The notes: a model not told the origin generated them from the sequence alone. Counted from the first letter of the stretch, positions 10,813 to 57,091 are shown. The stretch: DNA of 63,201 nt from Minisyncoccota bacterium (GCA_028712595.1 JAQTPS010000002.1:1-63201); one strand, 5' to 3'. A program made the numbers and translations.

Positions 10813-11319
10813 CTAATTAAGACCAAACAAGAAATGTATAATTTTTAACACCCCAGTAACTAAAAGTGTCCATGAAGTATTACTTACAATAACGCCAGCA
10901 ATAAATACTCCCCAATCCCGTCTTGATAAGCCAGAATAGGACCCCCGTCGAAACAAGAGCGTAAGCTTAAAGGGCTCAATGTATATTGATAAAACTAAGA
11001 CTCCTAGAGCAGTTTTTAGAGTATCTATTTTATGACTACCTTCTTTCTTAAGAAACCATGCAACAAATTTCCATGATTTCATCTTTTCAAAGCCCAGCAA
11101 ATCTTTTCCCATCCAATCATAAACAATAAACTGAGCCCATGTTCCCAAAAAAGAAACGGTCACCATAAACAATCCGCCGTACAGCATTCCACCGATTTCG
11201 ATGGCAATTGGATAAAGCACATATTCAAACCAGTGGTCTGTCAACCAAAGTACCAACCATCCTGTTCCAGCAAGGCCAAACCACTTAAAGAAACTTTTTG
11301 GGTTTTTTACTGTCTCCAT
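10813..11319 (-). CDS. hypothetical integral membrane protein (168 aa, about 4 TM)
   Basis: Hydrophobic-segment pattern, with a terminator immediately downstream. Confidence 0.5.
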   Translation of the reverse strand: METVKNPKSFFKWFGLAGTGWLVLWLTDHWFEYVLYPIAIEIGGMLYGGLFMVTVSFLGTWAQFIVYDWMGKDLLGFEKMKSWKFVAWFLKKEGSHKIDTLKTALGVLVLSIYIEPFKLTLLFRRGSYSGLSRRDWGVFIAGVIVSNTSWTLLVTGVLKIIHFLFGLN

Positions 11320-27929: not shown

Positions 27930-28952
27930 TTAACGCAAATATTTTGCTTTGTTTTCTTTGTGTTCTTCAAAAGTTTTTGCGTAGTGCATTACGCCGTTTT
28001 TATCCGAAAGATAATAGAGAAATGCGGTTTTTTGAGGGAAGATTGCAGAACGTATTGCTCCTAACCCTGGATTGCCTATTGGGCCTTCCGGAAGACCACG
28101 ATTAATGTATGTGTTGTAGGCTGATTTTATTTTTAGGTCCGCCAAAGTGAGTTCGTTCGATTCTTTTCCCAAAAGATAATAAAAAGGAGCGTCAACTTGA
28201 AGTGGCATAAGGTTGTCTATTCTTTTCCATAAAATTCCAGAAACAATTGCTTGATCCTCTGGTGTTTTTGCTTCTTTTTCTAAAATTGAGGCCATAATTA
28301 TGATGTCGCGGAGCGAGTGGCCAGATTCTTTTATCTCGCCCAGAAGCGGTTCTATTTTTGTTTGAAAATTGTCAGTGAATATTTTTTCTACATCTTGCAC
28401 ACTGGCGCGACTGGAAAACAAATATGTGTCGGGGAATAAATAACCTTCATGTGGAGCTAAATCTTTTAGAAAAAGAGACGCGTCGAACCCCGGCAAAGAT
28501 TCTGCGAGGATTACAGATATGCCTTTGTTTGAAGTGCCTTCTGGAATAGTGACTTTGGCCGACGGAATTCCGGAAATTCCATGAATAGTGCGCCAGGCAA
28601 TTGTGCATACAGAAGCTGGCTTTTGGAAAAGGTATTCTCCGGCCATTACGCCCTTCCCAACCCCAAGAGAAACCATGCAAAAGTCAAAAGCTATCTCTGA
28701 TTTAATGATGTGCTCGTTCTGTAGGAGTGTGGAGATTTCTTTGAGCGACTCCCCTTTTGGTATAGTGATCAGTTTCTCTTTCGGGAAATCAGATGGTGGC
28801 GCAAAAAAAATGAGGGAAAGAAGCCAAAGAAATACTACTACTCCGATCACAACGATTAAAACAGTTTTTGAAAAACGGGGTTTAATTTTGGAAAAATAAA
28901 ATTCTAATATTTTTGTTTTTATCTTCTGTATTTTTGAAGGTATTTGTTCCAT
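27930..28952 (-). CDS. mltG: endolytic murein transglycosylase MltG (YceG-like), paralog 1
   Basis: N-terminal TM segment; SILEKEAK...LQVDAPFYY...YNTYINRGLPEGPIGNPG. Confidence 0.87.
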   Translation of the reverse strand: MEQIPSKIQKIKTKILEFYFSKIKPRFSKTVLIVVIGVVVFLWLLSLIFFAPPSDFPKEKLITIPKGESLKEISTLLQNEHIIKSEIAFDFCMVSLGVGKGVMAGEYLFQKPASVCTIAWRTIHGISGIPSAKVTIPEGTSNKGISVILAESLPGFDASLFLKDLAPHEGYLFPDTYLFSSRASVQDVEKIFTDNFQTKIEPLLGEIKESGHSLRDIIIMASILEKEAKTPEDQAIVSGILWKRIDNLMPLQVDAPFYYLLGKESNELTLADLKIKSAYNTYINRGLPEGPIGNPGLGAIRSAIFPQKTAFLYYLSDKNGVMHYAKTFEEHKENKAKYLR

Positions 28953-47117: not shown

Positions 47118-47170
47118 ATGTCTGGCACTATAACAGAAATCTCCATCTTGGGGAAATGCGCGAGTTTGTG

Positions 47171-47303
47171 TGGAACCAAGAGGATTCTCCTTCGACTAAA
47201 TTTTTGTCGTCACAAAAATTTGTCTAGGCACTGGCTCGCGGCCTTCGACAGCTTCCCCGACATCGCTCCGCCATTCGAATCCTCTACAAAAGCAAAACTT
47301 TTG
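47171..47303 (-). repeat. tRNA-linked structured module, Val copy (antisense tRNA segment - conserved core - hairpin - sense copy of the tRNA 3' end)
   Basis: See findings. Core 47222-47273, antisense T-arm copy 47274-47285, sense copy 47171-47187. Confidence 0.6.
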
Positions 47304-47377: not shown

Positions 47378-47426
47378 GTATTGAAATTTCCGCGGAAGCA
47401 TCCCATGCTTCCGGTTGAGAACAGTG

Positions 47427-47498
47427 TCGGGGTGCCGAGATTTGAACTCGGAGTCTCACGAACCCGAATCGCGCATGTTACCGTTACACTACACCCCG
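47427..47498 (-). tRNA. tRNA-Pro (anticodon CGG), no encoded CCA
   Basis: CGGGGTG/CACCCCG acceptor, CGCGA-TTCGGGT-TCGTG anticodon arm with G37, CCGAG-TTCAAAT-CTCGG T-arm. Confidence 0.9.
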
Positions 47499-47511
47499 AC
47501 ACTGTTCTCAA

Positions 47512-47548
47512 CCCCAAATCCCGCATGTTACCGTTACACTACGCCCCG
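47512..47548 (-). pseudogene. 5' half of a tRNA-Pro(UGG)-like gene (acceptor 5' strand through anticodon loop), with no 3' half
   Basis: 33/37 identity to the first 37 nt of the adjacent tRNA-Pro. The anticodon position reads TGG. No T-arm or CGCCCCG acceptor strand follows. Confidence 0.6.
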
Positions 47549-47605
47549 TATTGCTCTAGCAACATTCAGGTTACCAATTTTGCACCTTGTTGGCAATATA
47601 AAACT

Positions 47606-48185: not shown

Positions 48186-49172
48186 ATGGAAAGCACTACG
48201 GTGGAACTTAAAAAAAGGGGTTCGTTTTGGATCAAAGTCGTCGCCCTTGGATGTGTATTTTTTCTTTTGTGTTATCTCCTCTGGCCAAACGGCGCTCCAT
48301 ACCAAAAGTACGAACAGTATTTTAGCGCCGAGAACGCCACACCCAAACAAATTGCTGACGAGCTTTATACGAAGGGCTATTTGAAAAATCGACTTTCATA
48401 TTTTACTTTGCTTATACAAAATGAAATTTTAAAAGGAATAAAAACAGGTGGATATTTTTTGTCAGCAAGTATGAACGTCGCAAGCATTTATGACTCCCTC
48501 TCACATCCGGAATACAAATCCATAACAATCGCGGAAGGTCTTCGCAAAGAAGAAATTGCGCAAATATATCAAAAAAATCTCAACTGGACAGACGCTGAAA
48601 CAGAAACGTTCGCAGAATCTCGGGCGTGCTATGCTGATGACTCCGAAGGGTATCTTTTCCCATCAACATACTATGTTGCTATTGATTCAAAACCAGAAGA
48701 AGTAAAGGAGCAAATGAAAAAACGTTTTGAGGAAACAGTTGGGTCGCCTATCGGGAGCAAAGACCAAGGCATTTTAAATCTTGACACCACGATTACCATT
48801 GCTTCTATCATCCAGCGAGAATCGGGGGGCAAAAAAGATATGAACCTCATTTCAGGAATCATCTGGAATCGCATTTTTGACAATATGGCTCTCGATATCG
48901 ATGCGACACTTCAATATGCTAAAGGCAATGATGGAAAATGGTGGCCAAAAGTTAAGCCTGAAGACAAATACATCAACTCTCCTTACAACACATATCAAAA
49001 TAAAGGTCTTCCACCGGGCGCAATCTCAAATCCAGGACTTGCGGCAATAGACGCGGCTCGCAATCCAGAAGACACCGATTGCTTATTTTATTTGCATGAC
49101 AAAAACAGAAAGATTCACTGCTCAAAGACATACGAGCAACACCTAGCGAAAATAAAGATTTATCTTAAATAG
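48186..49172 (+). CDS. mltG: endolytic murein transglycosylase MltG (YceG-like), paralog 2
   Basis: SIIQRESGG...DIDATLQYA...YNTYQNKGLPPGAISNPG. Confidence 0.82.
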   Translation: MESTTVELKKRGSFWIKVVALGCVFFLLCYLLWPNGAPYQKYEQYFSAENATPKQIADELYTKGYLKNRLSYFTLLIQNEILKGIKTGGYFLSASMNVASIYDSLSHPEYKSITIAEGLRKEEIAQIYQKNLNWTDAETETFAESRACYADDSEGYLFPSTYYVAIDSKPEEVKEQMKKRFEETVGSPIGSKDQGILNLDTTITIASIIQRESGGKKDMNLISGIIWNRIFDNMALDIDATLQYAKGNDGKWWPKVKPEDKYINSPYNTYQNKGLPPGAISNPGLAAIDAARNPEDTDCLFYLHDKNRKIHCSKTYEQHLAKIKIYLK

Positions 49173-49195: not shown

Positions 49196-49242
49196 AAAAC
49201 AAGGACTGTCCTTTCTAAATTCTTAAGGACAGACCTTGTTTT
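49196..49242. terminator. bidirectional hairpin between convergent genes
   Basis: 18-bp stem with one mismatch: aaaacaaggactgtcctt / aaggacagaccttgtttt. Confidence 0.55.
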
Positions 49243-50402
49243 TAGCGTTGTTTTTTAAAAGTTTTAGCAATTGCTTTTACCACCCCCTTATCAAAAGGTT
49301 TAGGCAGAATACAATCTACTGTCGGCTTTTTTACGCACGAAGCCAGGGCTTCGGCAGATTTTACGAACATTTTTTGTTCAAATTGCGGTATTTTGCTATC
49401 TAATATTCCACGGAAAATGCCGGGGAAACCGAGAACATTATTCAGTTGGTTGGGAAAATCTGAACGACCGGTTGCAACAATAAAAGCCCCAGCGCTTTTG
49501 GCTTCATCCGGCATAATCTCCGGAGTTGGATTAGCCAAGGCAAAAATTATCGGCTTTTCATTCATAGTCCTTACCATATCTTTAGAAAGTAAGCCGGCCT
49601 TGCTTACTCCAATAAAAATATCTCGTCCTTTTATGGCGTGAGCTAAATCACCAGAAATTTTTTCATAGTCGCCAGTTTTTTCTTTGATGAATTGAAGTAG
49701 CTTTTTCTTTTCATTATTCAAATCCGAACGATTTTCTGACACAATTCCCCTACTATCAACTACAATTATTTTTTTGAAACCGTACAGGGCAAGCATCTTT
49801 GCGATAGCTGTTCCCGCTGCTCCGACTCCATTTATTAAAATTTTAACGTCACCCTTGCCGATCTTTCTTAATTTCAAAGAATTTATCAAACCAGCCAAAA
49901 CCACCGTCGCAGTCCCGTGTTGGTCATCATGCATTACAGGAATATCCAATTCTTTTCTTAACCTCTCTTCTATTTCAAAACAACGTGGAGCAGAGATGTC
50001 TTCCAAATTAATACCACCAAAAACCGGAGCGATTTGTTTGACTGCCTTAATTATTTCTTCCGTATCTTGCGTGTCTAAACAAATTGGAAAAGCGTCCACG
50101 CCAGAAAATTCTTTGAACAAGAGCGCCTTGCCTTCCATCACCGGTATCGCCCCCAAAGCTCCTAAATTACCCAAGCCCAATACAGCCGAACCGTCAGAGA
50201 CAACGGCAACCATATTTTTCTTAACGGTGTAGTCGTAAACCTTCTTGTGGTCTTTGGCAATTTCAAGACAGACCCCTGCCACACCCGGGGTATAAGCCAA
50301 AGAAAGATCCTCCTTGTTTTTTACTGCGACCTTGCTTTTTATCTCAATTTTACCCGAATGCTTTTTATGCAAAGCCAGCGACTTAGTATATATATTTTTC
50401 AT
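49242..50402 (-). CDS. NAD(P)-dependent malic enzyme (short, single-module form)
   Basis: LSLAYTPGVAGVCLEI...VAVVSDGSAVLGLGNLGALGAIPVMEGKALLFKEF. Confidence 0.9.
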   Translation of the reverse strand: MKNIYTKSLALHKKHSGKIEIKSKVAVKNKEDLSLAYTPGVAGVCLEIAKDHKKVYDYTVKKNMVAVVSDGSAVLGLGNLGALGAIPVMEGKALLFKEFSGVDAFPICLDTQDTEEIIKAVKQIAPVFGGINLEDISAPRCFEIEERLRKELDIPVMHDDQHGTATVVLAGLINSLKLRKIGKGDVKILINGVGAAGTAIAKMLALYGFKKIIVVDSRGIVSENRSDLNNEKKKLLQFIKEKTGDYEKISGDLAHAIKGRDIFIGVSKAGLLSKDMVRTMNEKPIIFALANPTPEIMPDEAKSAGAFIVATGRSDFPNQLNNVLGFPGIFRGILDSKIPQFEQKMFVKSAEALASCVKKPTVDCILPKPFDKGVVKAIAKTFKKQR

Positions 50403-50419
50403 GTGGCAAAATTATACCA

Positions 50420-51607
50420 CTATTTTTTCTTATTTTTTCTCCAAATAACCAAAAATGAAGCGAGAAGAATAGCTATCATTATCCACGCGCCAGTATTCCA
50501 AGTTATTACACCATTTCCGAAAAAAGCAGAAGCAGCTTGGTTTGAATTGTCTACTGCATTATTGTTTGCCGTAACTCCCGTCGAAGATGCTTGGTTCCCC
50601 TCTCCGTTTTGATTGCCTGTTGGTTCTCCGACACGGAAAGTGTTTGCGCCCGGCACGGCTACTTCTCCTTGAGCCACTGGATTATTTTGTTCCTCGGTTG
50701 GTGTAGCGAGAGCAAGCGTTGGATTGGTTTCAATTGTACCGTCTTTTCTCAACATAAAAGTATGCTCGTAGCTCACCGTTGGCGGAGATGCTCGCGATAT
50801 GACTCTATAAGAATATATTTGCTCCGGCACGAGTCCGAGAAGTGTAACGGTATGGTATGTCACTTTTGTTAAATCTTGAGCCGTCCCCTGTGGATACCCA
50901 AAATTGTCTAGCGTGAGATTTAATACGTACGGGCCACCTGAAGCCAAGCCGTAAACAACCTGACTTGTCGAAAGCAAGTTTGTATTCCAAGTTACAACCG
51001 CGCTATTCGTCTGTGGTGGCAAAGTGCTGTTTATGGACTCGTCACTTATAACAAGATATTTTGGGCCGATAATTATTGGTCCACCGCCAGCGCCTCCACC
51101 CACAGGATTTTGTTTGCCGACGGACACAGTTGTATCATCAACCACTACATCGAGGTCCTCAAAACCTATTTGAAGGTTAAAACCCATCGTGCTGTTTTGA
51201 TATTCATCGCCTGCCGTAGTTTTGAAAGTAGCGGTAAAGTCAAACTGCACCGATGAATTTGCCGGCACTTGCGGTAAGACTATTTCCGGTTTGCTAAACA
51301 AATCAGAGAAAGTATCGTCGTATAAAATCGTACTGTCTTGCTTTATTACAAGTCCTACGACACTTTTCAAATCCCCTGTGTTGCTTACATTAATAGTGCG
51401 CAAAATGGCGCGATGCGGAACTCCAGTCGTGTTGTTTAGTTTTACCCACTTGGTAACAGAATCACCCGGAACAAAATTCACACTGTTAAAAAGCGGACTT
51501 TGCTCAAATTGAACGGTCGACGCCTGTGCATTTGCCGGGCTGAAAGAACTCGCAAAAACCGTTGCTAGCAATGTTAGATATATTAAATTTTTAGTGATTT
51601 TATTCAT
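50420..51607 (-). CDS. exported protein: AxA signal peptide, TasA/camelysin-like N-domain, Gly linker, Fn3-like domain, C-terminal TM anchor + KKK
   Basis: SPANAQAS cleavage-like site, FVPGDSVTKWVKLNNTTG, VVTWNTNLLSTSQVVYG, and C-terminal WIMIAILLASFLVIWRKNKKK. Confidence 0.55.
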   Translation of the reverse strand: MNKITKNLIYLTLLATVFASSFSPANAQASTVQFEQSPLFNSVNFVPGDSVTKWVKLNNTTGVPHRAILRTINVSNTGDLKSVVGLVIKQDSTILYDDTFSDLFSKPEIVLPQVPANSSVQFDFTATFKTTAGDEYQNSTMGFNLQIGFEDLDVVVDDTTVSVGKQNPVGGGAGGGPIIIGPKYLVISDESINSTLPPQTNSAVVTWNTNLLSTSQVVYGLASGGPYVLNLTLDNFGYPQGTAQDLTKVTYHTVTLLGLVPEQIYSYRVISRASPPTVSYEHTFMLRKDGTIETNPTLALATPTEEQNNPVAQGEVAVPGANTFRVGEPTGNQNGEGNQASSTGVTANNNAVDNSNQAASAFFGNGVITWNTGAWIMIAILLASFLVIWRKNKKK

Positions 51608-51613
51608 GGTGAT

Positions 51614-53035
51614 TTATGGGGTTACGGGTGCTTCCGCTACGGCAGGCGTTTCTACCACAACCGCTGGCTCTGGTTCCGGAACGACTACCGGCTCAACCAC
51701 GGAAACAGGCTCTACGACAGGAGAATCGGGCTCTGCGATAGTCTCCTCTGTGGCTGTTGGTTCAACAATTGGAGCTACTGGTTCTGTTTCTGGAATCGCC
51801 TCGTCTTCTTGCGACGAAGAAGGGTCAACTGTCGGTGGTGTAGCCTCCGGAGGAGCCGAGATGCTTTCATCTGCATCAATCTGTTCAGGTATTGCGGGAG
51901 GAAGTGTGTCGTCGGGCACAACCTCATCAGTTGGTGGGTTTTGAACATCTGGAGGCGCGATCACTTCCGCCCCACCGCCACCCGTCGTCGCATCAGGCAA
52001 AGCATTCACCACTACTTCTTCTACTTTGTTTGACGTTCCAGGTGTTGGTATTGGATCAACCCAAGCTCCCACGCCATCAGGAATTCTAGCGTAAGAAAAT
52101 CCTTCTGGTTTTTCTGTGGTCCAAGAGTAGGAATCAACCAAAACTCCACCAAGACTAATTCTATTCGTAAACAATCTAATGCTATCCGCATCATTATTTA
52201 GAATAAAGTCACCATCGCCATTGCGGTAAACCACAAGGAATCCATGAGAAGCTATTGTGGTGCCACTGCCAGTGTGCGCATTATCCACCGGCACTTCTCC
52301 AACATCAGTAGAATCATAAATATACCAACCGTTCAGATCGAAGCTGACGTTGCTGTTGTTGTAAAGTTCCACCCATTCACCTCCCGGCATTGGCGCATCG
52401 TCTAGTCCAGTCGGATTTGGTAATACTTCGTTTAGTACCACCGCTTTGCCGATTCGAATAGAGCCCAGTTTTTCCTTTACGCTCGAAAAACCGGTGGACG
52501 AATTTGGTAAATCACCTTGCCAAGCTGTATAAGTCCATTTGAAGAAACAGGTTTTCCCCCACACGCTGGGCGGAGTGCTTGGGGCAACCGTAAAACCGAA
52601 ATTCCAAGCAGTGTTTGTTGTTGAGGTCGCGGTGGAAGTAAAATCTTTTATGAGTCCCGTGTAAGTGCTCGTCGGGCTGGTTGCAGTCATTGTGACATAG
52701 TCGCAAGCTGACACGTTGGCGCCAGAAAGTGTGGTTTTCGCAATATATTGAGAACCTAAACTGCCGGTATTTGAAATATTTATTGAAGTAGAAGTGCTGT
52801 CCGTCGGATACAACAAATCCGAATTAAAGGCGGTTGTAGAATCCATACCCAGAGTCAGAGTTCCCGCGGTTAAAGTATTTCCAACGGAGGACTCTGTATC
52901 ACTATAATATGCGACAGTTTCATTGACATTCAGAACGCCAGAGAAAATTGAGACGACAACCAAAACTGCTAACAATTTAGAAAATTGTTTTTTACTCCAA
53001 AAAAGATATTTACTGTTGTTCTGTAACATTTTCAT
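51614..53035 (-). CDS. exported protein: SipW-type signal, TasA-like N-domain, lamin-tail (LTD) domain, Pro/Glu/Val-rich tail
   Basis: VAYYSDTESSVGNTLTAGTL, VVLNEVLPNPTGLDDAPMPGGEWVELYN (LTD), and C-terminal PVVEPVSVVEPVVVPEPEPAVV. Confidence 0.6.
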   Translation of the reverse strand: MKMLQNNSKYLFWSKKQFSKLLAVLVVVSIFSGVLNVNETVAYYSDTESSVGNTLTAGTLTLGMDSTTAFNSDLLYPTDSTSTSINISNTGSLGSQYIAKTTLSGANVSACDYVTMTATSPTSTYTGLIKDFTSTATSTTNTAWNFGFTVAPSTPPSVWGKTCFFKWTYTAWQGDLPNSSTGFSSVKEKLGSIRIGKAVVLNEVLPNPTGLDDAPMPGGEWVELYNNSNVSFDLNGWYIYDSTDVGEVPVDNAHTGSGTTIASHGFLVVYRNGDGDFILNNDADSIRLFTNRISLGGVLVDSYSWTTEKPEGFSYARIPDGVGAWVDPIPTPGTSNKVEEVVVNALPDATTGGGGAEVIAPPDVQNPPTDEVVPDDTLPPAIPEQIDADESISAPPEATPPTVDPSSSQEDEAIPETEPVAPIVEPTATEETIAEPDSPVVEPVSVVEPVVVPEPEPAVVVETPAVAEAPVTP

Positions 53036-53573
53036 CTTTTTTTAATGCAACCTTTCCTTCCCTCATTTTTTTAATTTCCTTGATGATTTTTTGTATTTCA
53101 TCATAAACGATGATGACTGCCGGAATAACTATCACGAGCATCAAACCAACCGGCTTCTTCAAAAAATCCACAATGTACCCGAGAAATGGTATTGAAAAAT
53201 AAACCTTGCCCAAAACTTCTTTTTGCGAAACTTCCTTGCTGTCTTCGGAATTGTTGGCGTCGCCTCTTGTTTTGTAAACAATCTCGCCACTTACCGCTTT
53301 CATTTCTGCGATACGATGAGTGGTTGGAATTTCGGTTTTTGTATTTTTTCCGAAAGTTATAACATCCCCAATCTTATAATCAGAAATTGGTTTAATTATC
53401 ACCACACTTCCGGTATGAATGGTTGGCTCCATAGATCCGGACAGCACCGAAAGCACCTTGATATTGCCCGTAATTGGAAAAACAGAAACTATAAGCAAAG
53501 ACGCAAAAAATAATATTGCGATGAGTGCTATGTAGTAAATTGTTTTGAAGGTTTTTTGCATAGGGTACGTCAA
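53010..53573 (-). CDS. sipW: signal peptidase I, SipW/archaeal-ER type (S26B)
   Basis: LSGSMEPTIHTGSVVII...THRI...TRGDANN, plus a C-terminal TM segment. Confidence 0.8.
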   Translation of the reverse strand: MTYPMQKTFKTIYYIALIAILFFASLLIVSVFPITGNIKVLSVLSGSMEPTIHTGSVVIIKPISDYKIGDVITFGKNTKTEIPTTHRIAEMKAVSGEIVYKTRGDANNSEDSKEVSQKEVLGKVYFSIPFLGYIVDFLKKPVGLMLVIVIPAVIIVYDEIQKIIKEIKKMREGKVALKKDENVTEQQ

Positions 53574-53639
53574 AACTTAACTCAAAACCCCCATACTCAA
53601 TCCCTCTTGTTAGAGAGATTGAGAAGCGAGATTCGAAGT

Positions 53640-54317
53640 TTATTCTGTCACTCCACCACTGCCACCAACCTGTTCAAGAGAGGTGAGAACATCAAAACCT
53701 AGGGTATCTGTCTGTATGATATTTTGATTATATGCTGGATAAGTCCATGCTGTTGGAAGTTGCCACATAACAACTAGATCAACAGATTGATCAGCTGTCA
53801 TTGTCATTATATCGTTCCATCCTGTTAGCATATTGCTCACACTAGTGTAGTGAAAGTCACCACCCCAGAATCCTGGATAAATTGCTTTTTGTCCGCCATA
53901 GGCAAGCTGATAATCTCCGGCGTCAAAAACTCCATTTCTGTTCACATCGAGATAAGCGGCAATCACAAATGATAAATCCAAATCACCTCCGTTGTCATAG
54001 TCGCCAGCTTTTATTTCTGGATCAGTCAGAGGACCACCTTCAGATTGAACCATATTTGCGATTTTTACATCCAAATCACCATTCAAACTGCCTGTAGCGT
54101 TTGTCAGAGTAACTTTGCCTGTGCCAGATTGACCAGGATAAAGATTTGCAACGCTAAATGGAATTGGATTGCCAGCACCAAGCACTAAGTCCAATTTCCC
54201 AGCACTAAAGGTATTTCCTGTTGATGTCTCCGTATCCGAGAAGTAAGCGCGAGTTGCGCCGACTGCTCCGATGGCGACGGCTGCGATAACACTCAAGCTT
54301 AAGATAATTCTTTTCAT
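53640..54317 (-). CDS. TasA/CalY (camelysin, peptidase M73-like) family exported protein
   Basis: ATRAYFSDTETSTGNTFSAGKLDL SipW-type N-terminus, and LYPGQSG...VTLTNATGSL. Confidence 0.7.
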   Translation of the reverse strand: MKRIILSLSVIAAVAIGAVGATRAYFSDTETSTGNTFSAGKLDLVLGAGNPIPFSVANLYPGQSGTGKVTLTNATGSLNGDLDVKIANMVQSEGGPLTDPEIKAGDYDNGGDLDLSFVIAAYLDVNRNGVFDAGDYQLAYGGQKAIYPGFWGGDFHYTSVSNMLTGWNDIMTMTADQSVDLVVMWQLPTAWTYPAYNQNIIQTDTLGFDVLTSLEQVGGSGGVTE

Positions 54318-54334
54318 AGTTTATTTCTTAATTA

Positions 54335-54838
54335 TTATTGTTGAACAGCATCAAAGGTAACACCCAAGTTGCCACTCAATCCCTGATAGCCGTTTCCAGC
54401 ACCTGCAGGGAAAGTAATGTCTACTTCACCTGCGTCACTAGCGTCAGTACCACCAACTGCTGACAAAGCTTCGGTAGTAGTGGCTACACCATCAACTCTA
54501 ACCGCACTGACAACTGGCGCATTTGGATTTTGTAACCCGGAAGTAGCTAGATCTTCATCAACTGACATAATAGCCCCACTAAGTGCTGTTGAAACAGTGT
54601 AATTAAGTGGCAAAGATCCTACATTGTTAACATTAAGAGTTAACGTTTTTACATCGCCCGGTTTCATATTTGTAACATCGGTTGTATAAGTAGCTGTACC
54701 AAGTGTTATATCCAAAGTTCCAGCTGTAAACGTATTTCCTGTGGATGTCTCTGTATCCGAGAAGTAAGCGCGAGTTGCGCCGACTGCTCCGATGGCGACG
54801 GCTGCGATAACACTCAAACTCAAAAGAATTCTTTTCAT
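54335..54838 (-). CDS. TasA/CalY-like exported protein, short paralog
   Basis: The first 38 residues match the neighbouring paralog except at positions 4-5 (II vs IL). MKPGDVKTLTLNVNNVGSLPL. Confidence 0.65.
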   Translation of the reverse strand: MKRILLSLSVIAAVAIGAVGATRAYFSDTETSTGNTFTAGTLDITLGTATYTTDVTNMKPGDVKTLTLNVNNVGSLPLNYTVSTALSGAIMSVDEDLATSGLQNPNAPVVSAVRVDGVATTTEALSAVGGTDASDAGEVDITFPAGAGNGYQGLSGNLGVTFDAVQQ

Positions 54839-54906
54839 ATTTTTACTTTATTTCTAAACTAATTAATTTCTAATAATATTCACCTGATAAAACTTTTCTA
54901 CTTTAC

Positions 54907-54943
54907 AAAAAGCAAGCGATTGGTTCCCAATCGCTTGCTTTTT
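54907..54943. terminator. strong bidirectional terminator hairpin
   Basis: 17-bp stem aaaaagcaagcgattgg / ccaatcgcttgcttttt with a 3-nt loop. Confidence 0.6.
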
Positions 54944-55314
54944 TAATGAACTATCTTCATAAAACTTCGCTCTCGCAAGTTAGTTTTATCTGCATATAAA
55001 TATATACCATACCTGTAGGGTGTCAATCGAAAATAGCGTTTGTTCTCTTTATTTTTTGCTGGTTTTGTCGCTCCCCTCGCACGAGGACTTTACAATAGTT
55101 GTGGACTGTGTTTCGGTACCAAACTAGCCCCTTATTTTGATGCGTTTTCTATCGGACATTCAGATGTCCGATAGAAAGTCAATCTGGGAAGGACGGTCCT
55201 TCCCAGATTTCGGGAGAGAGAATCTCCTTCGAGTAAATTCCTCGACGCAAAGCAAGCAATTGCTTTGCTACTATCTTGTGTGGTCACAAGTTACTAAATT
55301 TTGCCGTCAAAGAA

Positions 55315-55461
55315 GCCGGGAGAGAGAATCTCCCGCGACTCAAAGTTCGTCGTCACTCACTTTGGTCTGGGCACTGCCTCGTCTGTTTCGCAAGCTTGCG
55401 AAACATGACTGCGGCATTCGATTCTCTACGCAAGACGCACCAGCGTCTTGCTCTCCCGGCA
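55315..55461 (-). repeat. tRNA-linked structured module, Leu copy
   Basis: See findings. Antisense copy 55417-55461 (split by a hairpin), core 55366-55416, sense copy 55315-55330. An extra sense copy lies at 55211-55224. Confidence 0.58.
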
Positions 55462-55476
55462 CAAAAACGCGAACCC

Positions 55477-55504
55477 AAAAAGAGTGGACTGCTCCACTCT
55501 TTTT
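55477..55504 (-). terminator. hairpin terminator right after tRNA-Leu
   Basis: agagtgga/tccactct stem extended by an A5/T5 tract. Confidence 0.55.
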
Positions 55505-55512
55505 CGTTTTTG

Positions 55513-55594
55513 TGCCGGGAGAGAGAATCGAACTCTCATGGATTACTCCGCACGATTTTGAGTCGTGTGCGTCTACCAATTCCGCCATCCCGGC
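55513..55594 (-). tRNA. tRNA-Leu (anticodon CAA), long variable arm, no encoded CCA
   Basis: GCCGGGA/TCCCGGC acceptor, CACGA-CTCAAAA-TCGTG anticodon arm, 13-nt variable arm, GAGAG-TTCGATT-CTCTC T-arm. Confidence 0.93.
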
Positions 55595-56757: not shown

Positions 56758-56760
56758 CAT

Positions 56761-56802: not shown

Positions 56803-56812
56803 ACTATTGGTT

Positions 56813-57073
56813 CCTCGAGGAGAGTCGAATGGCGGAACGATGCCGAGCAAGCTTGCGAGGCCGTGAGCCAGTGCCCAGCCCGAGCCGAGTGGCGACGAGG
56901 CGAGAGGCGCGGGCGACTCTCCTCGGGTGGCGAGCCAGTGCCCAGAGTTTCTCGAGCGACGGCGAGAGAAAACTCGAGGGCAAGAAATAAAAGAGTACAC
57001 CACTAAAACCGTGAGCCAGTGCCCAGCCCGAGCCAAGTGGCGACGAGGCGAGAGTCGCGGGCGACTCTCCTCG
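56813..57073 (+). repeat. tRNA-linked structured module, Ala copies (one full unit 56813-56928 plus a second rearranged unit; 65-nt direct repeat 56861-56925 / 57009-57073)
   Basis: See findings. G+C-rich, and carries the same core as the Val and Leu loci. Confidence 0.6.
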
Positions 57074-57091
57074 AGCTTTCTGTTTTCCCAT

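Follow-up and report, generated by a model that had tools for sequence, protein, structure and literature searches.

Architecture of the tRNA-Leu locus

The window, by which we mean the whole stretch of 63,201 nucleotides of Minisyncoccota DNA that was analysed, contains a tRNA-Leu(CAA) gene on its minus strand at 55513-55594, identified by ARAGORN and by the Rfam tRNA model (58.7 bits). Behind the gene and on the same strand lies a non-coding region in which the 3' end of the tRNA recurs in both antisense and sense form. Its parts are given below in the direction of the tRNA gene, each with the evidence for it.

55513..55594, minus strand: tRNA-Leu(CAA); the copied stretch, S, comprises positions 54-73 (55513-55532)
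55462..55512, minus strand: X, made up of the trailer CA and AAAACG, a terminator-like hairpin and then CGTTTTTG (inverted repeats, terminator scan)
55451..55461, minus strand: S'a, antisense to the acceptor 3' strand and N73, TGCCGGGAGAG (inverted repeat 19/19; 0 mismatches)
55428..55450, minus strand: Px, the hairpin CAAGACGC-TGGT-GCGTCTTG followed by CGT (folds; compensatory A-T to G-C changes in the L132 orthologue)
55417..55427, minus strand: S'b, antisense to the T-stem 3' strand and T-loop, AGAGAATCGAA (inverted repeat 11/11; follows the tRNA change G57A in L132)
55375..55416, minus strand: P2, a UGCC...GGCA helix, a GA-rich internal loop and a perfect 11-bp hairpin centred on AAGCUU (folds, covariation)
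55332..55374, minus strand: J2/3 (GUG) and P3 (folds, covariation)
55315..55330, minus strand: S2, sense copy of tRNA positions 57-72, GATTCTCTCTCCCGGC, and 3' strand of the closing helix P1 (16/16 identity)
55278..55300, minus strand: remnant of the 3' part of a 'type B' module, AATTTAGTAACTTGTGACCACAC (by-eye comparison with type-B cores)
55208..55237, minus strand: degraded second right-end unit, CTCGAAGGAGA and the sense copy GATTCTCTCTCCCG (14/16; repeat finder)
55146..55209, minus strand: two perfect 14-bp hairpins that close the Leu non-coding region (inverted repeats)

An earlier, sequence-only reading of this DNA had described the tRNA, a nested terminator, the antisense copy, the core, a CAAAGT hairpin and the sense copies, and a repeat finder recovered all of these in place. 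The terminator-like hairpin of X (GAGTGGA-GCAG-TCCACTC with a U-run) is nested within an outer stem, CAAAAACG/CGTTTTTG, and positions 55451-55469 pair with 55505-55523 as an inverted repeat around the terminator that is 19 nt long and perfect (19/19) because it runs on into the 3' end of the tRNA. X thereby stands at the centre of a long palindrome whose arms are the tRNA-Leu 3' half and the antisense arm. The whole antisense copy (55417-55461) reads TGCCGGGAGAG[CAAGACGCTGGTGCGTCTTG-CGT]AGAGAATCGAA and is followed by the core of the module (55366-55416). Just past the core comes the P3 hairpin CAAAGU...ACUUUG with its conserved loop GAGUGACGACGA (as DNA, CAAAGT-GAGTGACGACGA-ACTTTG), the base of P3 being CCC-A-GAC / GUC-GC-GGG in this copy, and AGTCGCGGGA lies between this hairpin and S2.

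The exact 16-nt sense copy claimed for 55315-55330 matched the tRNA at 16/16 positions. A second sense copy, which had been given as 14 nt, is also present, its exact extent being 55209-55224 with a 14/16 match; it belongs to the degraded second unit, which the repeat finder returned as a direct repeat of 40 nt with 75% identity. The type-B remnant sits between the two sense copies and was assigned by eye against type-B cores of the form ...CTTAGTAACTCGTGACC in loci L142-L148. With up to three mismatches allowed, the 17-nt 3' end of tRNA-Leu occurs three times in the window against 0.10 expected, with a maximum of one in 100 shuffles; the Leu arrangement is far beyond chance.

The surroundings of the locus gave further observations. 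Beyond the 14-bp hairpins begins the next operon, with a promoter-like site (TTGACA-16-TATATT) at 55026-54999. A perfect 17-bp palindrome, AAAAAGCAAGCGATTGG/CCAATCGCTTGCTTTTT, occupies 54907-54943, and a related palindrome, AAAGCAAGCAATTGCTT, lies in the Leu non-coding region at 55249-55266; the two may represent a further small repeat. A six-gene segment adjoining the Leu module (49242-55300) encodes a malic enzyme, a purple-acid-phosphatase-like protein, three camelysin/TasA-like proteins and a SipW-like signal peptidase, and is missing from the corresponding place in L132, the closest relative. We considered this 6-kb segment as a genomic island at tRNA-Leu and rejected the idea, as it has no recombinase and no third tRNA-Leu repeat bounding it. 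Two YceG-like (MltG) paralogues (27930-28952 and 48186-49172) lie within 20 kb of each other in what is a small genome. At tRNA-Pro(CGG) (47426-47560, minus strand; 14250-14450 in L132), a leader/trailer inverted repeat of 12-13 nt extends the acceptor stem. In the relative the helix persists although its sequence differs (GTTGAGAACAGTG versus GTTAACATCAGTG), and so it covaries. Upstream of tRNA-Pro there are pseudo-copies of its 5' half, one in the window and two in L132.

Distribution, fold and core types of the module family

The Leu copy is one member of a lineage-wide family of structured modules, ~110-170 nt long, that occupy the 3' flank of tRNA genes on the same strand. The family was followed through a Paceibacteria/Yonathbacteria-like CPR clade in a sample of 48 tRNA genes in 14 loci. 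The relatives came from a Yonathbacteria genome, a 583-kb JGI/ENA contig, Hainich groundwater contigs and GW2011 Parcubacteria, and were found by pattern scans and by look-ups of D-alanine--D-alanine ligase (Ddl) homologues. When a genome collection was scanned with a loose pattern, 116 of 118 loci proved to be chance matches in high-GC genomes and two (L001 and L007, both Yonathbacteria) were real; viral contigs gave six pattern matches, none of which was confirmed by the covariance model described below.

Two sister modules lie within the window:

47167..47292, minus strand: sister module of tRNA-Val(CAC), without Px, acceptor complement and terminator (covariance-model match 117 bits)
56811..57083, plus strand: sister module of tRNA-Ala(UGC) with two extra right-half units (covariance-model matches 119.5 and 43 bits)

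The claim that the module is repeated was supported. Copies are found 3' of tRNA-Val and tRNA-Ala in the window and of many tRNAs in the relatives, the antisense and sense arms fit their own tRNA at each locus, and the layout recurs in related genomes. A chimeric collapse of tRNA-Leu paralogues during assembly, which the sequence-only reading had named as a way in which it might fail, is ruled out because the same arrangement recurs in independent NCBI, JGI and ENA assemblies.

The tRNA is succeeded by a short trailer, in which a terminator-like hairpin is usual, and then by S'a, Px, S'b, P2, P3 and S2, to which CCA is sometimes added. Across the family S2 is a sense copy of tRNA positions G57 to N73, and S'b ends ...TCGAA, exactly at T54. 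A cognate 12-nt antisense of tRNA positions 54-65, with at most one mismatch, was found +47 to +85 nt downstream of 26 of the 48 tRNAs, compared with 68 of 1950 non-cognate pairings and 0/48 on the upstream side. A 16-nt sense copy with at most two mismatches accompanies 19 of the 48. From 12 copies we built a covariance model, which found 32 copies, 31 of them just 3' of a tRNA on the same strand; the lone exception is an 18.7-bit match at the start of locus L147, where the upstream side of the locus is absent from the sequence. The tRNAs that bear a module are those for Leu, Ala, Val (two anticodons), Trp, Asn, Ser, Pro, His, Tyr and Glu. At tRNA-Trp the module was present in 8/8 relatives examined, and the S2 flank there, GCCCGCCAC(A/T)TT, is kept although the core type varies; judged by these sequences, the Trp series probably reflects long persistence of the module.

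Several loci show peculiarities of their own. Past the Ala module of the window, 56926-57083 holds two extra partial units (GAGCCAGTGCCCAG and a P3 hairpin), of which the second has a sense copy of its own whose CTCGAG fits the Ala antisense arm better than the tRNA does. In a Hainich contig (L148, ~11170-11290) an N run masks part of the tRNA-Pro and module region, and since its flanks are duplicated module-like sequence, such loci may be hard to assemble. In L001 (5100-5540, minus strand) a tRNA-Leu(CAA) has no module and an ORF lies directly behind it, and when this DNA is translated by eye it resembles a LAGLIDADG homing-endonuclease motif (IGDGNL).

The modules fold into a multi-way junction made of P1 (the antisense:sense helix), Px, P2 and P3, and the Leu, Val and Ala modules of the window share this fold on folding, each with arms that fit its own tRNA. 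RNAalifold returned 33 pairs for the 12 best copies, with compensatory changes in 23/33. With all 32 copies the fraction of cells that pair is 91.5%, whereas shuffles gave 65% and slid controls 34-43%; double changes occur at 30/33 pairs. P2 covaries as UGGC/GCCA, UGCC/GGCA and UAGC/GCUA, and P3 as CCY/RGG and as GAC/GUC versus GAG/CUC versus GCC/GGC. The conserved unpaired nucleotides are UCGAAUGGCGGAG, GAGCCAGUGCCYAG and the loop GYGRCGRCGA. In P1, seven acceptor pairs and five T-stem pairs are followed by 3-4 further pairs into the T-loop part; one side of the helix is the tRNA's own 3' strand, Px branches off where the rest of the tRNA would, and the tail is N73, with CCA in several copies. 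P1 reproduces the acceptor/T-stem stack in the Leu, Asn, His and Trp copies, while its acceptor part is missing in the window Val module and degenerate elsewhere. By-eye inspection for a K-turn, an H/ACA pocket or a bulge-helix-bulge found nothing convincing in the module.

This fold changes two features of the original description. The 23-nt hairpin, which had been taken for an insertion splitting the antisense copy, is instead the conserved module part Px: it is present in most copies with the consensus AGCAAGNC...GNCTTGCGT, without exception where the acceptor complement meets the T-stem complement, and shows compensatory changes between the window and L132. Nor are the sense copies best understood as self-folding minihelices. 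The proposed fold-back of CGGGAGA on TCTCCCG does have 7 bp at the first Leu copy; it falls to 5 bp at the second and is not conserved elsewhere. Moreover, the GGG of CGGGAGA covaries with the CCY of P3 (CG versus UA), and the sense copy pairs with the antisense arm to form P1, in which 6/6 pairs show double changes. The suggested likeness to an acceptor/T-arm minihelix does hold, though for P1 and not for the local hairpin, which is confined to Leu.

At least three core types were distinguished, all of which share the TCGAA-W-GGCG... P2 region and the arms:

type A (window): GAGCCAGUGCCYAG, with the P3 loop GYGRCGRCGA
type B: ...GGGGUCGAGAGUACUUAG-hairpin-CUUAGUAACUCGUGACC
type C: a shorter form

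Pairs are overwhelmingly Watson-Crick. Over all helices G.U and A.C stand at 26:21, and by helix at 11:4 in P1, 2:9 in P3, 6:1 in S:S'b and 1:4 in S:S'a. The wobble pairs of P1 thus appear to favour the tRNA strand and those of P3 the other strand, and the Watson-Crick excess would suit hairpins of DNA no less than RNA. Being bidirectional, the terminator does not fix the acting strand; a reading on the opposite strand, as a convergent tRNA-like gene that shares the terminator, was rejected as weakly disfavoured by the wobble pairs of P1 and Px.

The arms track their tRNAs closely. Where the T-loop reads TTCAA rather than TTCGA (G57A), the antisense arm reads TTGAA, and the two arms keep step with A59 or G59 across the tRNA-Trp series. 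About one third of copies have a degraded S2, with S'b still perfect, and S'b remains perfect or nearly so despite S2 drift in Asn, in the Trp copy of L001 and in Val-GAC. After S2, CCA is encoded in Trp (four genomes), Ser, Asn, Leu and one Pro copy, that is, in at least five tRNA species. Among the tRNA genes themselves, 41/48 encode N73-CA, one C short of CCA (e.g., window 55511-55513 and 56758-56760), and 3/48 encode CCA, all three without a module.

These data bear on the possibility that the modules are functionless scars of past tRNA-targeting island or phage integrations, fused attL/attR arms that share sequence by chance. Partial copies of a tRNA 3' end downstream of the gene are the usual scar of such integrations, and pseudo-copies of the 5' half occur as well at tRNA-Pro. 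We nevertheless consider this explanation very improbable: it is already disfavoured by the covariation, with 30/33 covarying pairs in a structured core conserved across genera and at least ten tRNA species, and the antisense arm matched to its tRNA, the conserved S2 flanks and the streamlined host genomes also speak against it. When copies of types A and B were searched against Rfam, using both the gathering threshold and E<=10, just tRNAs and noise were returned and no module match, and we found no description of comparable elements in the literature. The family is undescribed, supported by covariation and missing from Rfam.

A possible cis-acting RNA or mobile element

Judged by reading the sequences, a convincing terminator stands between tRNA and module at ~70% of module-bearing loci. 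None separates the two at the window Val, L132 Leu, L125 Pro and L145 Leu loci, so that co-transcription of the module would be unavoidable there. The Asn and His modules have a terminator of their own behind them, and a promoter scan of both strands returned no promoter-like site for the module. The genes downstream of the window modules are a TasA-like operon, miaA and pepN, two of them with promoter-like sites of their own.

When a transcript of tRNA plus module was modelled, the minimum-free-energy fold was a cloverleaf with acceptor and T stems closed by S2. The real tRNA 3' half (S) and S' form a long hairpin that includes the terminator and Px, and P2 and P3 complete a giant "T-loop"; DNA parameters gave the same fold. 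The alternative fold, a normal tRNA beside a self-closed module, lay 6-12 kcal/mol higher in the model. Because the antisense arm can also pair with the real 3' half of the tRNA, the precursor is predicted to have two near-isoenergetic folds, and the competing copies S, S' and S2 with these two folds would therefore constitute a strand-swap system.

We tentatively put first, at somewhat less than even confidence, the reading that the module is a cis-acting RNA of the 3' trailer that combines a strand swap with mimicry of the tRNA end. It would be transcribed with the tRNA, by co-transcription at terminator-less loci and by read-through elsewhere, and would act in cis as RNA through its 5' arm S', which would have two mutually exclusive partners. 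Pairing of S' with S2 would close the junction and leave the tRNA free to fold; the S2-closed module would then mimic the acceptor/T-stem stack, with the Px branch and an N73(CCA) tail, and might look like a substrate or decoy to tRNA end-processing enzymes. Pairing of S' with the tRNA 3' half would lock that half in a hairpin of ~30-40 bp, and with S locked, S2 would close the acceptor and T stems, giving a tRNA with a giant T-loop insertion. By strand swap or by mimicry, the module would decide what becomes of precursors extending beyond the tRNA end. It is proposed that the tRNA-specific arms are maintained because both pairings need them, and the common core may be homogenised between loci by recombination.

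The cis-RNA reading explains the need for both arms to match each tRNA, and it fits the persistence of the modules in streamlined genomes, their same-strand placement and the co-transcription at terminator-less loci. Against it, with a terminator at ~70% of loci and no module promoter, most transcripts may never include the module. Tandem partial units, decayed remnants, mosaic cores and varying occupancy look like a selfish repeat, the decay of S2 in about a third of copies leaves S'b perfect, the near parity of G.U and A.C over all helices would suit DNA equally, and the acquisition of matched arms by a new tRNA is left without explanation. A more specific version, which we regard as improbable, is that the modules are tRNA-specific RNA switches, in which a common sensing core (the P2/P3 junction) is combined with arms programmed for each tRNA, and one shared signal (a ligand or protein) decides whether the tRNA 3' half is released or locked. 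If true, more than half of the examined tRNAs would be under post-transcriptional control in these reduced-genome CPR bacteria.

The features of P1 also allow for a free-standing, tRNA-like small RNA, in which a released S'...S2 piece would expose an acceptor/T-stem-like helix and an N73-CCA end identical to those of the cognate tRNA, and would be read by RNase P or Z, the CCA-adding enzyme, the cognate synthetase or a tRNA-targeting toxin, acting towards these proteins as decoy, substrate or titrator. The seven acceptor and five T-stem pairs with an authentic 3' strand, Px at the equivalent of the 7/49 junction, the CCA encoded past S2 in several independent copies with a conserved S2 flank, and the terminators that the Asn and His modules have for themselves all point in this direction. 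However, several intact copies (window Val, window Ala and L122 Ser) have no acceptor part in P1 or a degenerate one, the G3.U70 identity pair is replaced by a Watson-Crick pair or a mismatch in the Ala copies, and the module has no anticodon arm, no promoter and no match by tRNA/tmRNA finders. We consider this reading unlikely.

Comparison between loci shows considerable turnover. The P2 of the window Leu module is 88% identical to that of a relative's Ala module and 67% to that of the orthologous Leu module, and the cores are mosaic and exchanged between loci, whereas the trailers and terminators are locus-specific. Right halves are duplicated in tandem in the window Ala, L132 Leu and Ala, and L142 and L143 Trp modules, and most of the L001 Ala module is lost, leaving a decayed remnant. 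The Pro-Val spacer is empty in the window and holds a module in L132; similarly, the Ala site is empty in L146 and filled in L143. The terminator is common to both of these Ala sites, and the module therefore starts right after it.

It is almost as likely as the cis-RNA reading, though still doubtful, that the module is a miniature non-autonomous mobile or integrative element targeting the T-loop and 3' end of tRNA genes. S and S2 would then be an att- or TSD-like direct repeat, with S2 the displaced original 3' end, and the S:S' hairpin of single-stranded DNA would mimic a double-stranded tRNA-gene target, like the folded attP of CTX phage or integron attC, the element being moved in trans by a recombinase encoded elsewhere. 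A direct repeat of 17-24 bp flanks the insertion and starts in the T-loop, as with T-loop-targeting integrases; across loci it starts at G57 and extends 0-7 nt past N73, and one L132 copy includes ~21 nt of trailer. The order S-X-S'-core-S2 would be the exact product expected of a folded single-stranded circle recombining within S. Empty and filled sites at Pro-Val and Ala, tandem accretion of units, the decayed L001 Ala remnant and the mosaicism of cores between loci are further points in favour, as are the near-perfect Watson-Crick palindromes without wobble bias and the occurrence of S2 with CCA and its own terminator, like an original gene end.

On the other side, none of the 40 ORFs in the window, which are housekeeping genes, has an integrase, transposase, recombinase, HUH or RT domain, and no copy carrying an ORF was seen among the loci examined. 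The trailer/terminator X is locus-specific and common to the empty L146 and filled L143 Ala sites, so X is not element-borne. Arms specific to at least ten different tRNAs would need some retargeting step. Both arms stay matched to their tRNA across deep divergence, and in the loci examined there were no copies away from tRNAs save the one low-scoring match at a locus start. Mobility accounts for the direct repeat, for turnover and tandem units and for helices made of Watson-Crick pairs alone, and leaves the enzyme and the route of retargeting without an answer.

If the modules act as RNA, they would reveal an unseen layer of tRNA biology in an uncultivated lineage with reduced RNA-processing machinery, each tRNA gene having a structured antagonist or mimic of its own 3' end. 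If they are mobile, they would be a new kind of very small element, with tRNA genes as its programmed target and a folded copy of that target within it, with a bearing on structure-specified recombination sites. Either reading would explain puzzling tRNA-end fragments in CPR genomes and offers testable RNAs of ~130-170 nt.

Comparison with known systems

Genomic islands and prophages that integrate at the T-loop, and CIMEs, share with the module a direct repeat from T-loop to 3' end on both sides (S and S2 agree at 16/16 positions at Leu), tandem accretion and varying occupancy. The module differs in that its insert is ~150-200 bp, with an antisense target copy and a covarying folded core inside, in that no integrase or recombinase gene is found among the 40 ORFs of the window, and in that the same core stands at ten or more different tRNA species in one genome. 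Folded single-stranded att sites, such as CTX phage attP and integron attC, similarly use inverted arms to imitate a double-stranded target, and the S-X-S'-core-S2 order fits the topology of a folded-att integration product. Here, the targets would be tRNA genes instead of dif or attI, an Xer/IntI core-site consensus is missing, each locus has arms of its own and phage or cassette content is absent. MITE and REP repeats have fixed terminal inverted repeats and are scattered, whereas the arms of the module differ per locus and equal the local tRNA, and every match apart from the low-scoring one in L147 lies beside a tRNA.

The retroviral primer-binding site and the Neurospora Mauriceville retroplasmid have in common with the modules that the terminal ~18 nt of a tRNA are present as a DNA copy, and some module copies include a CCA that is absent from the gene, an antisense copy of the tRNA 3' end being present as well. 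In contrast to a primer-binding site, the antisense arm matches the gene (N73-CA and trailer) and not the mature CCA end, as it is preceded by TTG or CGTTTTTG, the complement of the gene's trailer; the host is bacterial and there is no reverse transcriptase in the window. The UGGCGGAG in P2 is not a primer-binding site either, because it covaries with its P2 partner. In archaeal non-canonical T-loop tRNA introns, as in the read-through fold, a T-loop insertion is complementary to the adjacent exon. The module differs from these in its bacterial host and in having no evident bulge-helix-bulge, and as its insertion carries a complete alternative 3' end and terminator, no splicing would be needed. 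Group I and group II intron models gave no Rfam match to the module, whose core is ~90 nt with two hairpins.

Among RNA elements, the alternative pairing of riboswitches and attenuators, including the T-box, is akin to that of the module, which has a conserved junction closed by P1, one P1 strand with a competing partner (as predicted in silico), and an aptamer-like arrangement with covariation and conserved unpaired nucleotides. Unlike a T-box, the module lies in a tRNA 3' trailer and not a 5' leader, and has no specifier, T-box sequence or UGGN bulge; the T-box covariance model gave no match over the modules (Rfam gathering threshold and E<=10), and the modules follow tRNA genes instead of heading an aminoacyl-tRNA synthetase or amino-acid gene as its 5' leader. 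It differs from riboswitches in having no known ligand and in that the competing partner is the tRNA's own 3' half, in cis. ARAGORN and the Rfam tRNA/tmRNA models recognised just the four authentic tRNAs of the window and none of the modules. The tRNA-like domains of tmRNA (TLD), viral 3' ends (TLS) and YrlA Y RNA likewise place an acceptor/T-stem-type helix with a discriminator base and, as in some module copies, CCA on a non-tRNA body; in the module, by comparison, this helix copies the neighbouring tRNA and differs per locus, and two hairpins replace the T-loop. None of the known families tested accommodates the modules, which we therefore regard as a new kind of tRNA-associated element.
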